Assembly: GCA_951406725.2 (NCBI GenBank)
Contig: OX597814.1
Location: 71,858,001 to 71,922,000 of the forward strand
DNA length: 64,000 bases
Direction of reading: 5' to 3'
DNA from: Octopus vulgaris
Taxonomy: Eukaryota
Both the position numbers and the translations under genes were made by a program. Below are positions 25,421-64,000 of the stretch, piece after piece (within the stretch, counting starts at the first letter, position 1; every line of letters begins with the position of its first letter). The notes beneath the pieces were generated by a model that made no database searches, had not been told where the DNA came from, and saw only the letters and a list, made by a program, of their open reading frames with translations.

Positions 25421-25844
25421 ACATATAACTAGATCACAAAAAGTACAAAAACGAATAAACTATATAATAAGTAAAAAAAACTACATACATTTCATGGCTA
25501 TAATTTAAAATTCGAATTACAATTAAATTTAATCGAAAAGGTTTTTTACATGATAAATGTCCTATTGTTTAAGTTTCAAATTTAGTTAATGGAGTTTCTT
25601 CTAAAAGAACAATCATGATTTTAATTCTTTAAGAAATATTGTTTAATTCTATTTATTTATTTAACTATTATTGTTATTATTGTTGACCTGAGGAGTCACT
25701 ATACTTTTAAATTGAATTGTTTTTTGATTAGATTTAAATTTAATTGTAATTCGAATTGAAATTATAGCCATGAAACCTGCATAGTCTTTTTACTTGTTAT
25801 ATATTGTTTATTCATTTTTGTACTTTCTGTGATCTAGTTATATG
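25421..25844. repeat. Old inverted repeat of a Penelope-type terminus with degenerate hammerhead (25685-25786, +)
   Basis: 25421-25531 vs 25733-25844 are reverse complements; gac-CTGAGGA..GAAAcctgcaTA-gtc. Confidence 0.6.
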
Positions 25845-26980
25845 TGTTACGAGGTGGGGGGGACCTCCGATTCGAACTGTTACAGAATCCCTCAGACAGG
25901 TCCATTCGATGCAGCGAATAAGCTACGGAAACTCGGAGAGGAGAGGAGAGACAACAACAACAGCAGCAGCAGCAATCAGGAATATCCCACTTCTGACACC
26001 AATTGTTACGAGGGGGGACCTCCGATTTGAACTGTTACGGAATCCCTCACACCCAGGCCCGTTCGATGCAGCGAATGTTTTCGCCACGGAAACTCGTCGG
26101 AGAGGAGAGGAGAGGAGAGATAGATACAACAACCGCCACAGCAGCACAGAGGCAATCGAGAGAGACACAAAGAGGCAAGGCACAACTGGCTTACATTTAA
26201 CAACTAGTTTATATGACAATCAATTCTTACAACATCAAATACATATCAGGTACATTTAAAAGAGGACATGCACGTAACAACTCAATACATCATACAGGTA
26301 TACCACAGATCAAAGCATTTAAACATGCAAGTAACATTATAACTGCCTGGTAACAACACATCAAGGTCAATACATCAGCATTTCAAAGGTACACGTCCGA
26401 AGACAAAGTTCTATTTCAAAACACATCAACAAGTCATATACAGTTCAAAGGACATTACAGGCCTAACAGTTCAATGTTCATTATACAATGTTCAAATCAC
26501 AACACTGTACACAATGTCTTTACACAATTCACAATGTTCATTAAATTCCTTTTTACTGTCTCATTTCTTTTCACTGTTCAATACATCAATTCTTTTTCCT
26601 TCTTTTTCTTCACATATCAATACACAATTCACATACCTTAATTCCTAATTAGAATAGCCAGTGTCCCATATTGTAGTTCCTCTCTCTCAGTACTGCTAGC
26701 TCCAACTTGCCAAACTCTTGCCCCGAATTCCCAAATCCTCACTCCTAAAATTCCAACTGCTCGCTTTGATGACCGAAATCCGACTGTCCCTCTATCCCTA
26801 CCCTCAATCTGTCTCTTAGCACTTATACTCTCTCTATCCCGCCTGGTCCTACGTCCCTATCTCTATCAGTGCTGCTGCTGTCATTCTCTCATGACAGCTC
26901 TCAGATCCCTTACTCTGTCTTTCCACTGCTAATATTCTCTCTATCTTCACTGTCACTAGATTCTTCCTTACTCTATCTTC
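25845..26980 (-). mobile_element. LTR-retrotransposon remnant: LTR end, PBS and a duplicated LTR 3' part
   Basis: Minus strand reads ..cgtaaCA-at-TGGTGTCAGAAGTGGGAT; 25845-25950 duplicates 26004-26120. The right boundary is uncertain. Confidence 0.6.
25984..26001 (-). promoter_or_regulatory. Primer-binding site, complementary to a tRNA-Leu 3' end
   Basis: TGGTGTCAGAAGTGGGAT two nt after the LTR-terminal CA. Confidence 0.7.
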
Positions 26981-27518
26981 CGTGTGTGGTTTCCACTTCA
27001 TCGGGGAATTATCTCCCTTTGCAGGATAGAGGACGCCGTGATGGTGTCAAGCCTATCTGGCGACGTTGATGTTCGCCTGGGGCTAAATGCAACAGTAACA
27101 CCCCCACCACCCTGCCCTGTCCCTAGCCATATTCAGATGGCTTTAGTCCCTTGTGTTATGGAGCAGTTACTGTCTATATCTCATTTAGAGAATTATTATT
27201 GCTGTCGAACAGATTTTCGAAATCAGCAAATGTATTTTGCTTGAAAATCTATATAAATATCCTGCAGAGTGAGGTGTTCGTCGAGGAAGCGGTTGCCTAC
27301 CATACGTTGATAATAGGCAAACACCTTGTAACCTAGGTCCGTGTGTGGTTTCCGCTTCATCGGGGAATTATCTCCCTTTGCAGGATAGAGGACGCCGTGA
27401 TGGTGTCAAGCCTATCTGGCGACGTTGATGTTCGCCTGGGGCTAAATGCAACAGTAACACCCCCACCACCCTGCCCTGTCCCTAGCCATATTCAGATGGC
27501 TTTAGTCCCTTGTGTTAT
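26981..27518 (+). mobile_element. Retrozyme-like tandem array, 1.5 copies of a 359-bp unit; degenerate HHR at 27300-27348
   Basis: Unit repeats at 26981 and 27340; homologous to 59714-60954; catacg-TTGATAA..GTAA-cctagg-TC-cgtgtg. Confidence 0.85.
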
Positions 27519-29087
<1,569 letters not shown>

Positions 29088-29088
29088 T

Positions 29089-31953
29089 ATGATTTGATTT
29101 TGATTTGATTTTTCCAGTTTCAGCTAATGAGCTGTGGCCATGCTGGGGCACCGCCATTTGGTTTGCTACACGATTTTACCTCACGGATGCTTTTTAGCAA
29201 ACGCCATCTGATGCATGAGAGAGTTCAATGCAGCTGCCCTCATCTGCACCTCCGGCCGTGAAGTTGGTTCATCCGGGACACCTGACAGGAAGAGATCCAG
29301 TCCTACTTTAAAGACATCCGCATCTACACCATGCAGGTCCCTCAGGTTCTTCGGGAGGATATTGAACAGCGGTGGGCCTCTGAAGCCCAGGCTATCACAA
29401 TATCTTGTCCTACATCTTGATGGCAAATTTGGAGTCCTTGGTACTACGCAGTGGCGCCCGGTTCTGGCATTTGTGCGACTCTTGATGCCAAAGTCTGGGA
29501 CAAGTCCTTCCAGGATCTTCCAGCTATATATTATGGCATATCTTTCTCGCCTACACTCCAGGGAATAGAGCTTTAATCTCTTGAGTCTTTCCCAGTAGGT
29601 CATATGCTGCACAGAGGCTATCTTCTTCGTGTAGCTTCGTTGGATCGCCTCAAGTTCTGTGATCAACTTGACACTGGATGGTGACAATAGCTGAGAGCAA
29701 TAGTCAAAGTGGCTTAGGACAAGTGTCTTCCAGAGGATCATCATGGTTTCTTGTTCTCTTGTTCTAAAGGTTCTAAGAATCCATCCAGCCAGCCGTCTAC
29801 ATTTCATTGTCAGTTTAGCAACATGTACATGAAAGGTCGCGTCATCACTCATGTGAATACCCAGGTCACGCACTGATTGTGCCTCCGGGATTGCAATCCC
29901 TCCGGGTCCAGTGTATTCATTGGGTATTGCATTCAGTTTTGCATGCTGATAGTGTAAAGCTTGAAACTTTTCAGCATTGAACTGCATGCTATTCTTTTCA
30001 GCCCACTTGTATATTTCGTCCAGCTCACATTGCAGGTGCTTAGTGTCTTCAGGGTTCTGTATTGTCTGTGAGACTTTTGTATCATCTGCATAACTTGTGA
30101 TCGTGGCTCTCTGCGTGGCTGAGGGCATGTCCGAGAGGGCCATTATGAACAGTAGTGGTCCCAAAACAGTGCCCTGCGGAACACCGCTCACCACCTGCGT
30201 GCCAATGGAAGCGGCCCCATTGGCTGCCACCACCTGACTTCTATTCCTCAGAAAGCCACGAAGCCATTTTCCCAATCTTCCAACTATGCTAAGATCACGC
30301 AGCCTGTGACACATCACTCCATGATCGACTTTATCAAAGGCCCCCGCAAAGTCGAGATATATCACTTCCACATTTGAGTGGTTGAGCAGTTGTTTCAGCA
30401 CCCAGTCATAGTGTTGTAGGAGCTGAGTTAAGCAGCTTCTTCCTGGTCGGAAACCATGTTGGGTGTCAGGCAGCAAGTCATTTTCTTCAAGGAAGGTGAT
30501 TAGTTTCCTTCTGACTATTCGTTCCATGACCTTGCTGATGTGTGAGGTCAGAGAGATAGGTCTGTAGTTCTTGGCCTCCGCTCTGCCACCTCCCCCACGA
30601 ATAGGGCATATTTTACCTTCCTTCAGTTTTCTTGGAAGTTTGCCAGCTGCAAGGAAGCTCTGAAAGAGGAACTGCAGTGGTCTTGCTAGGACTCTCTTAC
30701 ATACTTTTAGGAGGATTGCCGGGAATCCATCGGGGCCAATAGCTGAGTCTGTTTTCATTTCATCTATAGCCTTTATTACATCGTCTTCCTTTATATCGAT
30801 GTAATTTATCGTCGCCGCCTCTGATTTTATATTTGCAGTGGTAAAGAAGTCAGTTGGATTGCTGATTTGGAAATGCCCAAGGGGTGGAGTGAAAACACTC
30901 TTGATTTGCTCATTCAGTATTTCACTTACCCTCATTGGTTTTCCTGTGAGTGTGCTATCCTTTTCAAGGAGTGGCCCTATCCTACAGTGCACCGTAGCTG
31001 TTTCTTTGGCATACCTGTAGAAAGCTCTGGGGTTAGTTTTTATGTTGTCTATAGCCCAGGCTTCTTTGTCTGCTCTTTCCTTTTCATGGGAGAGTTGCAG
31101 ACATTTTTCAATTTCCAACAGTTTTATTTTCAGGCGGGACTTTTCACTGCTTTCAATTTGTTTGTTTAGGCGATTTGAAATTTTTGTACGCCGTCTCATT
31201 AGAATTTTCCTCTCTCTGGGGATTTTGTTCTTGTGTACAGTGGCCTTTCTCTCTGGGACACATTTGTAGCATATGGCTTGCATTACAGACATGAATTGTT
31301 GAAGTTTCATGTCGATGGCCGGCGAGGAGAGACATTCAGGCCAGTTTTGTTTGAGGATCTCTTTCTCAATTTGTTTCCAGTTTGCCTTATTGAAGTTCAA
31401 GCTGGAAAGATTCTGAGAGTTTCTTGTAGGCTGCATGTCCGTGCTCTCTTTTGGCCCGTACATGGTCAGCTCTACCATGTTGTGATCCGAGAGTAGTGTC
31501 GGTGCCACTTTCACATTATGGATGAGATCCATATTATTTGTGAAGCAGAGATCCAGTGTGTTACCTGCCCTGGTTGGTTGGAGTATTACTTGCTCCATGT
31601 ACAGTGTTGATGAGGTTCAGGAGGGACCTCGCCTGTCCTCGTTCACATCTTGTCATTCCTGGGAGAGAAAGGCCCTCAGGCTATCTGACATTGGGTAGAT
31701 TGAAGTCTCCCATGAGAAGTACACTTATGTGTTGTTCTAATGTGATTAGAACTTCTTTTATTTTTATAAGGCAGTCTTGAAACTTGCCTACATGGCTTGG
31801 GGCATCTGGAGGGCGATATGTAGCACACACAACTACATCAAGTTGCCTTATGTGTACAATTAGTGTGTCACACACCGAGTTTGAGTATGACAAAAGGACC
31901 TGGGGTGTGAGGTCCTCACGGATGTACATAGCAACTCCTCCATGACTCCTTTC
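29089..31953 (-). mobile_element. CR1-group LINE subfamily A copy, 5'-truncated, frameshift near 31603, clustered A>G substitutions
   Basis: ORFs 29181..31598 and 31681..31929 are highly similar to 4764-7871; (AAATC)n tail. Confidence 0.92.
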
Positions 31954-59562: not shown

Positions 59563-59716
<154 letters not shown>

Positions 59717-59881
59717 CATAAGGGACTAAAGCCATCTGAATATGGCTAGGGACAGGGCAGGGTGGTGGGGGTGTTACTGTTGCATTTAGCCCCAGGCGAA
59801 CATCGACGTCACCAGAAAGGCTCGACACCGTCACGGTGCCCTAAACCTGCAAAGGGAGGTAATTCCCCGATGAAGCGGAAA

Positions 59882-59931
59882 CCACACACGGACCATGGTT
59901 TCAAGGTGTATTGCCTATCATCGGCGTGTGG
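59882..59931 (-). ncRNA. Type-I hammerhead (CCGAUGA core)
   Basis: Reverse complement of 60692-60741. Confidence 0.8.
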
Positions 59932-60241
59932 TAGGCCTCCGCTTCCTCGACGAATTCTCACTCTGCAGGATTTTCTTATATAGATTTTCAAGCAAAATAC
60001 ATTTGCTGATTTCGAAAATCTGTTCGAAAGCAATAATAATTCTCTAAAAGGGATACAGACAGTAACTGCTCGATAACATAAGGGACTAAAGCCATCTGAA
60101 TATGGCTAGGGACAGGGCAGGGTGGTGGAGGTGTTACTGTTGCATTTAGCCCCAGGCGAACATCGACGTCACCAGAAAGGCTCGACACCGTCACGGTGCC
60201 CTAAACCTGCAAAGGGAGGTAATTCCCCGATGAAGCGGAAA

Positions 60242-60291
60242 CCACACACGGACCATGGTTTCAAGGTGTATTGCCTATCATCGGCGTGTGG
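60242..60291 (-). ncRNA. Type-I hammerhead (CCGAUGA core)
   Basis: Reverse complement of 60692-60741. Confidence 0.8.
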
Positions 60292-60691
60292 TAGGCCTCC
60301 GCTTCCTCGACGAATTCTCGCTCTGCAGGATTTTCTTATATAGATTTTCAAGCAAAATACATTTGCTGATTTCGAAAATCTGTTCGAAAGCAATAATAAT
60401 TCTCTAAAAGGGATATAGACAGTAACTGCTCGATAACATAAGGGACTAAAGCCATCTGAATATGGCTAGGGACAGGGCAGGGTGGTGGGGGTGTTACTGT
60501 TGCATTTAGCCCCAGGCGAACATCGACGTCACCAGAAAGGCTTGACACCATCACGGCGTCCTCTATCCTGCAAAGGGAGATAATTATTATTGCTTTCGAA
60601 CAGATTTTCGAAATCAGCAAATGTATTTTGCTTGAAAATCTATATAAGAAAATCCTGCAGAGTGAGAATTCGTCGAGGAAGCGGAGGCCTA

Positions 60692-60741
60692 CCACACGCC
60701 GATGATAGGCAATACACCTTGAAACCATGGTCCGTGTGTGG
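60692..60741 (+). ncRNA. Type-I hammerhead (CCGAUGA core, palindromic stem III)
   Basis: cacacg-CCGATGA-t agg caataca cct t-GAAA-ccatgg-TC-cgtgtg; cut after 60732. Confidence 0.82.
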
Positions 60742-60952
60742 TTTCCGCTTCATCGGGGAATTACCTCCCTTTGCAGGTTTAGGGCACCGTGACGGTGTCG
60801 AGCCTTTCTGGTGACGTCGATGTTCGCCTGGGGCTAAATGCAACAGTAACACCCCCACCACCCTGCCCTGTCCCTAGCCATATTCAGATGGCTTTAGTCC
60901 CTTATGTTATCGAGCAGTTACTGTCTATATCCCTTTTAGAGAATTATTATTG

Positions 60953-61059
<107 letters not shown>

Positions 61060-61306: not shown

Positions 61307-61394
61307 CATATATATATATATACTGACATATATACATATATATATATATTGACATATATATATATTTTATTTTACTTTATTTTTTTATTTTATT

Positions 61395-64000
61395 TAGTTT
61401 CAGCTCACAAGCTGTGGCCATGCTGGGGCACCGCCATTTGGTGTTGCTACATGATTTTACTTCACGAAAGCTTTTTAGCAAATGCCATCTGGTGCATGAG
61501 AGAGTTTGATGCAGCTGCCCTCATCTGCACCTCCTGCCGTGAAGTTGGTTCATCTGGGACACCTGACAAGAAGAGATCCAGTTTCATTTTAAAGACAACT
61601 GCATCCACCCCATGCAGGTCTCTTAGGTTCTTCGGGAGGATATTGAAGAGCTGTGGGCCTCTGAAGCCCAGGCTATCACAGTATCTTGTCCTGTATCTTG
61701 ATGGCAAATTTGGAGTCCTTGGCACTATGCAGTGGCGCCCAGTTCTGGCATTTGTGTAACTCTTGATGCCAAAGTTTGGGACAAGTCCTTCTAGGATCTT
61801 CCAGATGTATATTATGGCATATCTTTCTCGCCTACGCTCTAAGGAATAGAGTCTCAATCGCTTGAGTCTTTCCCAATAGCTTATATGCTGCACAGAGGCT
61901 ATCTTCTTCGTCTAGCTTCGTTGGATCGCCTCAAGTTCTGTGATTAACTTGACACTTGATGGTGACCATGGCTGAGAGCAATAGTCAAAGTGGCTTAGGT
62001 CTAGTGCCCTCCAGAGGACCATCATGGTTTCCTGGTCTCTTGTTCTAAAGCTTCTAAGAATCCATCCGGTCAGCCGCCTACATTTCATTGCCAATTTAGC
62101 AACATGCACATGAAAAGTTGCATCATCACTCATGTGAATACCCAGGTCTCGCACTGATTGTGCCTCTGGGATTGCAATGCCTCCAGGTCCAGTGTATTTA
62201 TTGGGTATTGCATTTAGTTTTGCATGCTGATAGTATAAAGCTTGAAACTTTTCAGCATTGAACTGCATGCTATTCTTTTCAGCCGACTTGTATATTTTGT
62301 CCAGCTCAGATTGCAGGTGCTTAGTGTTTTCAGGGTTCTGTATTGCCTGTGAAACTTTTGTATCATCTGCATAACTTGTGATTGTGGCTCTCTGTGTGGC
62401 TGAGGGCATGTCTGAGAGGGCCATTATGAGCAGCAGTGGTTCCAAAACAGTGCCTTGCGGAACACTGCTCACTATTTGCGTGTTAATGGAAGTGGCCCCA
62501 TTGGCTACTACCACCTGACTTCTATCCTTCAGAAAGTCATGAAGCCATTCTCCCAATTTTCCAACTATGCCAAGATCACACAGTTTGTGACATATCATAC
62601 CATGATCGACTTTATCAAAGGCCTTTGCAAAGCCGAGATATATCACTTCCACATTTGAGTGGTTGATCAGTCGTTTCAGCACCCAGTCACAGTGTTAAGC
62701 AGCTTCTTCCTGGTCGGAAACCATGCTGGGTGTCAGGCAGCAAGTCATTTTCTTCAAGGAAGGTGATTAGTTTCCTTCTGACTATTCGTTCCATGACCTT
62801 GCTGATGTGTGAGGTTAGAGAGATAGGTCTGTACTTCTTGGCCTCTGCTCTGCTACCTCCTTTATGAATAGGGCACATTTTACCTTCCTTCAGTTTTCTT
62901 GGAAGTTTGCCAGTTGCAAGGAAGCTCTGAAAGAGGAACTGCAGTGGTCTTGCTAGGACTCTCTTACATACTTTTAGAAAGATTGCTGGGAATCCATCAG
63001 GGCCAGTAGCTGAGTTTGTTTTCATTTCATCAATAGCCTTTATTACATCGTCTTCCTTTATATCGATGTAATCAATCATCGCTGCCTCTGATTTTATATC
63101 TACAGTGGTAAAGAAGTCAGTTGGAGTGCTGACTTGAAAATGCCCTAGGGGTGGAGTGAAAATACTCTTGAATTATTCAGTTAGTATTTCACTTACCTTC
63201 ATTGGATTTCCTGTGAGTGTGCCATCCTTTTAAAGGAGTGGCCCTATCCTACAGTGCACCATAGCTGTTTCTTTGGTATACCTGTAGAAAGCTCTGGGGT
63301 TAGATTTTATGTTGTCTATAGCCCAGGCTTCTTTGTCTGCTCTTCCTTTTTCATGGGTGAGTTGCAGACATTTTTCAATTTCCAACAGTTTTATTTTCAG
63401 GTGGGACTTTTCACTGCTTTCAATTTGTTTGTTTAGGCGATTTGAAACTTTTGTACGCCGTTTCATTAGAATTTTCCTCTCTCTGGGGATTTTGTTCTTG
63501 TGTACAGTGGCCTTTCTCTCTGGGACACATTTGTAGTATGTAGCTTGAATTACAGACGTCGATGTCTGGCGAGGAGAGACATTAAGGCCAGTTTTGTTTG
63601 AGGATCTCTTTCTCAATTTGTTTCCAGTTTGCCTTATGAAAGTTCAAGCTGGAAAGATTCTGAGAGTTTCTTGTAGGCTGCATGTCCATGCTTTCCATTG
63701 GCCCGTACATGGTCAGCTCTACCATGTTGTGATCCGAGAGTAGTGTCGGCGTCACTTTCTCATTATGGATGAGATCCATATTATTTGTGAAGCAGAGATC
63801 CAGTATGTTACCTGCCCTGGTTGGTTGGAGTATTAATTGTTCCATGTACAGGGTGTTGATGAGATTCAGGAGGGACCTTGCCTGTCCTCGTTCACATCGT
63901 GTCATTCTTGGGAGAGAAAGGCCCTCAGGCCATCTGACATTGGGTAGATTGAAGTCTCCCATGAGAAGTACACTTATGTGTTGTTCTAATGTGATTAGAA
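61395..64000 (-). mobile_element. Decayed CR1-group LINE subfamily A, continues beyond the window
   Basis: Five broken ORFs (61462-63962) collinear with 4764-7871. Confidence 0.93.

Follow-up and report, generated by a model that had tools for sequence, protein, structure and literature searches.

The locus described here raises the question of whether the ends of a short repeat array record the cleavage of its RNA template by a ribozyme. In a 64-kb stretch of octopus DNA (the window, to which all positions refer), 1.5 head-to-tail units of a 359-360 bp repeat carrying a predicted hammerhead occupy positions 26981-27518 (Table 1). The original prediction was that the template had been a self-cleaved RNA, that reverse transcription had been primed from nicked (TA)n at a preferred UAU site, and that the reverse transcriptase (RT) had run off at the cleaved 5' end. 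When other insertions of the same family were compared, the fixed feature was found to be a pair of 3' ends. The repeat is probably a non-LTR retrozyme that ends at two points 44 nt apart and was written into (TA)n by a Penelope-like RT priming one RNA twice.

Table 1. Coordinates of the focal copy, its flanks and the 60-kb copy in the window.
Feature	Position	Strand	Remarks
LTR remnant, 5' end short by 151-169 bp	26002..26981	-	matches a repeat family with 602 candidates
3-nt microhomology TCC, common to LTR and repeat	26979..26981	+	straddles the predicted cut position
Repeat unit 1	26981..27339	+	359 bp, 45% GC, no frame above 88 codons; position 1 is the first base 3' of the predicted cut
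Short inverted repeat (52-68 within the unit)	27032..27048	+	beside the 5'-end peak (41-60)
44-nt 'tail' from start site A (179) to start site B (223), internal copy	27160..27203	+	
Predicted long hairpin prolonging stem I	27259..27386	+	unit positions ~283-330 with 1-45; z = -6.7 (about -7)
Sole complete type I hammerhead of the focal copy	27301..27345	+	predicted cut between 27339 and 27340
Partial unit 2, unit positions 1-179, terminating at start site A	27340..27518	+	
(TA)n target tract	27516..29090	.	~1.5 kb
A arm of the 60-kb insertion	59713..60585	-	2.4 units; from unit position 27 (5' end) to 179 (3' end)
B arm of the 60-kb insertion	60578..60954	+	from unit position 207 (5' end) to 223 (3' end)

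Units of the family were found to be 359-360 bp long with 45-47% GC and a longest stop-to-stop frame of 98 codons, in arrays that reach at least 10 units, and no open reading frame (ORF) for an RT and GIY-YIG nuclease was present inside the repeat unit. The focal element is likely a protein-free non-LTR retrozyme, and a Penelope-like element probably provides its mobility. Its second unit differs from the first at a single base.

The hammerhead and its cut position, on which the original prediction was built, were again predicted in the focal repeat. Stem I is formed by 27301-27306 and 27340-27345, the core is UUGAUAA (U3-A8) with a U-U at the base of stem II, stem III is a palindromic hexamer, and GUAA replaces GAAA (A13U), a change private to this copy (1 of 369 units). 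Among the 369 units the core was CCGAUGA in 177, CCGACGA in 64, UUGAUGA in about 50 and UUGAUAA in about 35; GAAA was almost invariant, and core, GAAA, palindromic stem III and UC were found in nearly all. The core of the main subtype carries C4 for U4 (U4C). Three different palindromes make up the stem III hexamer across the two subtypes and a 350-bp sister family, and in predicted dimer folds the palindromes pair between units. U3-A8 core covariation and dimeric folding are described, in the accessible text, for Penelope-associated minimal hammerheads (PMC4209133). The predicted hairpin that prolongs stem I has a stem of 45 bp.

The sister family aligned to Rfam Hammerhead_HH9 (E = 6e-7, short of the gathering score), and in this alignment the cut falls at the same GUC/C. 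A scan of the 64-kb window with Rfam gave nothing at the gathering threshold, and neither window subtype matched an Rfam hammerhead at E up to 10. Two consecutive complete hammerheads, which mark an active copy in the accessible text of Li et al. (2026), were absent in the focal copy, which has one motif only; the A arm of the 60-kb copy contains two. The single complete motif with A13U lowers the predicted activity of the focal copy, not its family membership. The sister family itself (L274:1556-1905 and L259-L288; 4,843 candidates) has a canonical stem II and the third palindrome, and further relatives lie at L327:5783-6017, L307:20-300 and L331:1-460. In two runs labelled as other organisms (X15 and X16), the C-core subtype was present at 90-95% likeness, and the retrozyme family may extend to related species.

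At the 5' end of the focal copy, homology starts within the interval 26979-26981, which spans the predicted cut and has as its last base the one just 3' of GUC, as originally reported. The ambiguity with the flank is 3 nt (TCC) and not the 2 nt ('tc') given originally. TCC was kept in nine of 11 other LTR copies, which diverge afterwards, so that the focal break can lie anywhere from -2 to +2, cut included. The same junction was present in a contig of another study (83 nt of flank followed by repeat) and is therefore not an assembly artefact; since that contig, further in, bears the other subtype's letters and is possibly an assembly mosaic, the junction alone is relied on. The adjoining LTR remnant, also reported originally, is real. 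Between it and the LTR terminus, 151-169 bp are missing (measured on six of nine homologues), and this piece was not found in a search of the rest of the 64-kb window. Next to the remnant lies what we take to be a primer-binding-site-like motif (25984-26003). Beyond the LTR end and this motif, the LTR end recurs as a copy of 135 bp (25839-26003), which suggests an internally deleted element.

The focal junction is thus a 3-nt microhomology join with flank deletion. The copy is single-armed, its one arm (the A arm) ending at unit position 179 in (TA)n; it would have retained the A arm only, and microhomology joining to the neighbouring LTR would have cost at least 150 bp. Because of this join and the loss of LTR sequence, the focal 5' end is probably a trace of repair or deletion and likely matches the cut by chance.

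The 60-kb copy in the same window is 91% identical to the focal copy. Its A and B arms meet head-to-head through an 8-nt overlap, and both of its 5' ends (27 and 207) lie away from the predicted cut; the original description mentions neither the B arm nor these ends. As originally stated, its end point in (TA)n is that of the focal copy, both being at unit position 179 (59713 and 27518, respectively), and this common 3' end is far beyond chance. On the far side of both retrozyme-bearing (TA)n tracts lies the end of what is presumably one LINE family, judged by eye (29090-29400 and 61365-61700). In the A arm of the 60-kb copy, the 45 nt that lie innermost (60541-60585) carry the letters of the 27-kb subtype and the remainder those of the other subtype; the change may reflect a source array of mixed subtypes or template switching.

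The family was sampled across the 2.8-Gb genome, in which the exact 26-mer 3' of the cut occurs in at least 1,455 units. The first set of 240 loci gave 190 segments, namely 126 two-armed, 52 single and 12 complex or cut off, the last of which were dropped. Left out of its 5' ends were the focal copy, the 30 best-match loci, whose arms are length-biased, and any arm lacking an A or B end; 260 arms (258 events) remained. The replicate consisted of 87 loci chosen by minor 3' junctions, less 11 overlaps with the first set and five complex loci, and gave 122 arms (119 events) after exclusions. Loci entered the samples through one of their 3' ends or through their place on the first contigs, so that neither the partner arm nor the 5' ends were selected for; old, diverged copies are under-represented. 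Simple two-armed insertions made up 126 of the 190 first-set loci and 55 of the 76 replicate loci. Among the 52 single arms, a search for common 5' flanks gave one duplicated pair only. Unrelated sequence of 40-320 bp lies between the arms in some insertions (segments at L188, L173 and L234), consistent with capture during joining.

Exact 3' junctions were found genome-wide 750 times at position 223 (site B), 527 times at 179 (site A), 67 times at 219 and 22 times at 176. One A end was paired with one B end in 119 of 126 two-armed insertions of the first set and 51 of 55 of the replicate (170 of 181). No A+A or B+B pair was present among the 181, the other 11 having one end outside both classes. 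The sister family has the same two 3' ends, at homologous A and B. The 3' flank was (TA)n in 277 of 304 cases; repeats of 12-17 nt flank six of 17 sites that are not pure TA, several of them AT-rich and hence weak, and target duplications of approximately 10-13 nt were seen at a few such sites.

Of the predicted priming from nicked (TA)n at a preferred UAU, the insertion into (TA)n is upheld and the preference is not: two sites are used, and the homology of the commoner one, B, to (TA)n amounts to only 1 nt. The unit contains 12 TAT triplets, most of them unused as ends. Complementarity therefore does not choose the 3' end sites, and priming by UAU complementarity alone was rejected. On sequence grounds, the paired fixed 3' ends are the signature of a Penelope 'tail' and not a simple UAU preference. 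In vitro, the boundaries of the Penelope-like tail are two internal RT start sites, according to the accessible text of PMC11167929.

No such fixed point was found for the 5' ends. Those within 2 nt of the cut numbered three of 258 in the first set (3.3 expected) and zero of 119 in the replicate (1.4 expected), together three of 377 (4.7 expected). In the genome-wide mismatch pattern, four true breaks were counted at the cut compared to 12 at control position 88 (p = 0.21), after two of six cut matches had been dropped as TG insertions and with two of 13 control matches belonging to one duplicated locus; the capture rate of this pattern was 36-47%, as estimated from base composition. A sharp 5'-end peak at the cut is ruled out by the two samples and the genome-wide patterns, and run-off exactly at the cleaved 5' end does not hold as a rule. 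The coincidence of the focal 5' end with the cut is probably not beyond chance; as other copies start elsewhere, the focal start at the predicted cut is probably coincidental. A start at the cut is no family rule and is not citable as evidence of cleavage.

That the focal junction itself arose when an RT ran off the end of a self-cleaved RNA is unlikely. Its -2 to +2 interval includes the cut and three other arms start at position 2, but the junction shows microhomology and flank deletion, the counts at the cut are no higher than expected or than at the control site, and among the 52 short two-armed insertions no arm comes nearer than 14 nt to the cut. Moreover, in the accessible text of PMC11167929, ribozyme mutants of a Penelope-like element were just as proficient at insertion, and none of the reads had its end at the cut.

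Over a wider interval the 5' ends were found to be unevenly spread. Stops per base at risk were 2.98-fold (p = 6e-7) and 3.17-fold (p = 7e-4) more frequent at positions 1-60 than at 300-359 in the first set and the replicate, respectively, with a locus bootstrap range of 1.9-5.2, and the excess recurred in later passes (23/6360 compared to 8/5319, p = 0.03). The original prediction had proposed a histogram of breakpoints as its check. This histogram is non-uniform, with 3' ends fixed at two sites and 5' stops approximately threefold denser 3' of the cut, but it has no peak at the cut. The density step, like the best step position of 1-2 in the first set, is in the direction that run-off predicts; in the replicate the best step was at 15-23, so its position is unstable. 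A weaker form of the cleaved-template idea survives, in which templates that were cut and then trimmed could be the source of the threefold excess.

Cleavage may also have played no part in templating. An RT on uncut or circular RNA would then stall at the base of the long hairpin, the leading RT would block the trailing one, and the arms would join at the palindrome at 52-68. This is a substantial possibility, though it falls somewhat short of an even chance. In both sets the stops peak at 41-60, where the long stem has its base and next to the short inverted repeat; the stem is predicted with z about -7, and the excess in later passes also fits stalling. In addition, pairs in which only the A arm stops 3' of the cut are rarer than those in which only the B arm does, and the main in vitro substrate was unprocessed RNA (PMC11167929, accessible text). 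Against stalling, a hazard model based on pairing of the 3' arm was no better than a flat one and a 1-45 box fitted poorly. Boxes over 1-60 or 1-120 (AIC 641-642) fitted better than decay from the cut (650), and with the pairing model no better than flat, neither barrier model is clean.

The two arms of an insertion were found to be coupled in their letters and in their stops. Among long pairs, 62 of 64 had the same subtype in both arms, and 33 of 83 rare A-arm variants recurred in their own B arm (1.35 expected). Both arms stopped 3' of the cut in 52 of the 170 pairs, the A arm only in seven and the B arm only in 21; the coupling was strongest at thresholds of +10 to -30, and coupling recurred in the replicate (20 of 21, p = 3e-7). 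The median offset between arms was 10.5 nt in the 52 short pairs compared to 222 nt in the rest, and arms that crossed the cut were loosely coupled (rho 0.23), a pattern that a shared template end explains more simply than stalling does. The A arm reached further in 105 pairs and the B arm in 57, as expected if B trails A. These findings point to one RNA primed twice as the simplest reading of the common rare variants and joint stops.

A pair of RNAs with one source locus could also account for the shared variants, as could arm-to-arm gene conversion. It is rather unlikely that the arms were copied from two RNAs on an asymmetric enzyme dimer, their likeness being due to one dominant source locus or to later gene conversion. 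The 50 of 83 rare variants that are unshared, the two of 64 long pairs that differ in subtype and the 60-kb A arm, which ends in a piece of the other subtype, are in keeping with two RNAs. Unshared variants are nevertheless expected from 1-3% change after insertion, and two RNAs by themselves explain neither the strict A+B pairing nor the coupling of stops.

Neither arm was nested in the other in 57 of the 170 pairs (38 with a margin of at least 30 nt), which excludes simple snap-back copying of the first cDNA. This bears on an account in the accessible text of PMC3846280 and PMC8557442, in which self-priming by fold-back on an antisense template produces the inverted arm, the tail being trimmed later by the nuclease. 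Such a fold-back would account for the shared variants and for near-symmetric junctions, arm stops lying within 10 nt of each other in 18 of 119 pairs (4.2 expected). It is quite improbable here, given the non-nested pairs and the direct demonstration, for one element, of RT initiation at both tail boundaries (PMC11167929, accessible text); fold-back with a longer antisense RNA that is trimmed afterwards may apply.

With twin priming of one RNA as the preferred reading, the steps would be as follows. A GIY-YIG nuclease would nick both (TA)n strands about 10-13 nt apart, and a single RNA would be primed by one nick at A (179) and by the second at B (223). The two cDNAs would extend toward the RNA 5' end and then join head-to-head through short inverted repeats, with the ribozyme hairpin acting as a barrier. 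The barrier might be the cleaved RNA end together with trimming, or it might be stalling at the 45-bp stem, and for either the chance is appreciable without reaching one half. More tentatively still, twin priming of a single sense RNA at two internal start sites may be what makes one-tailed, head-to-head Penelope-like insertions in general, with approximately 30% of retrozyme insertions coming from ribozyme-cut linear RNA and the rest from circles or multimers.

A candidate for the enzyme is present in the same genome. A young family with an RT plus a GIY-YIG domain at the C terminus in a 781-aa frame (16 of 150 rows) carries a hammerhead-like motif with a UUGAUAA core (U3-A8) approximately 95 nt before its end, and has arms with and without a tail at one locus (L321). 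Its CxxxxCxxC linker fits the description of Neptune/Nematis in the accessible text of PMC8557442. At L319:430-5672 this family was seen with a separate upstream 359-aa frame and 456-bp pLTRs. At L196 (G000:C2:87783862 onward, positions 406-903), a two-armed insertion has an A arm (end at 175) that runs, with no TA in between, into the final 270 bp of the 781-aa family, followed by (TA)n. This fusion is possibly a template switch between two RNAs, but it is one of 190 segments and could be two insertions.

No contiguous pLTR match to the retrozyme was found in 46 GIY-YIG loci drawn from 6136 candidates, and the 781-aa family is for this reason a candidate partner only. Three other loci were considered as autonomous partners and rejected. 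The match at L327, the best (74% to the sister family), is a separate (TA)n insertion 600 bp beyond the Penelope-like element and not its pLTR, and those at L331 and L307 are unlinked to any ORF. A second Penelope-like family lies in (TA)n at L327:2001-5180, two-armed and head-to-head with a tail of approximately 30 nt on one arm. Contigs of 390 nt (unit plus 30) were present in four of seven runs, which are only presumed to be RNA; a circle and a tandem DNA array give the same loop, contigs do not show RNA ends, and none of the runs containing the repeat is recorded as RNA.

How inverted one-tailed Penelope-like insertions form, and what the hammerhead does in transposition, are stated to be open in the accessible text of PMC8557442 and PMC11167929. 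The octopus family offers hundreds of short, young insertions with both arms readable, in which the strict pairing of A with B, the rare variants in common and the coupling of stops speak for a single RNA primed twice, a reading that is testable in the existing in vitro system. If twin priming and partly ribozyme-cut templates were both true, the genome would record ribozyme activity in the germ line and would directly test the unresolved step of Penelope transposition. A search of the openly accessible literature gave no genome-wide count of A+B pairing, of arm coupling or of 5' stops around the cut.

Compared to the non-LTR retrozymes of animals, in the accessible text of Cervera and de la Pena (2020, PMC7229834) and Li et al. 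(2026, bioRxiv 10.64898/2026.07.22.740005), the octopus repeat is alike in its head-to-tail, non-coding units of 350-360 bp with less than 50% GC, in the single type I hammerhead of every unit, whose stem III is short and palindromic, and in its co-occurrence with Penelope-like elements; the U-U at the base of stem II is shared with axolotl HHR_Amex2. It differs in that its insertions are mostly short, head-to-head and two-armed with fixed paired ends, its ribozyme being a predicted one, and the accessible published text on animal retrozymes contains no breakpoint analysis. With the endonuclease-bearing Penelope-like elements (PMC8557442 and PMC3846280, accessible text) it shares the inverted 5'-truncated arm, the short extension at one end only, the microsatellite target, a target duplication of approximately 10 bp and microhomology at the 5' junctions. 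In contrast to them it has no ORF, its tail is 44 nt compared to 30-40 nt, and it had no pLTR match to the autonomous elements examined.

An experimental parallel in the text available is Poseidon PAc of Anolis in vitro (PMC11167929), whose tail likewise lies between two neighbouring internal RT start sites; it also has an AT-rich target cut on both strands, little homology between primer and template, and no ends at the ribozyme cut. In the accessible part of that study no strand difference in start site is reported and pairing is unaddressed, whereas in the octopus repeat an A end is strictly paired with a B end and the arms are coupled. The minimal hammerheads associated with Penelope (PMC4209133, accessible text) have the same U3-A8 core covariation and a palindromic stem III suited to dimeric folding, but the main octopus subtype has C4 instead of U4 and its hammerhead is a predicted one. 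The retrozyme class and the Penelope insertion shape are both known, and by comparison of its sequence the octopus family is an added non-LTR retrozyme.
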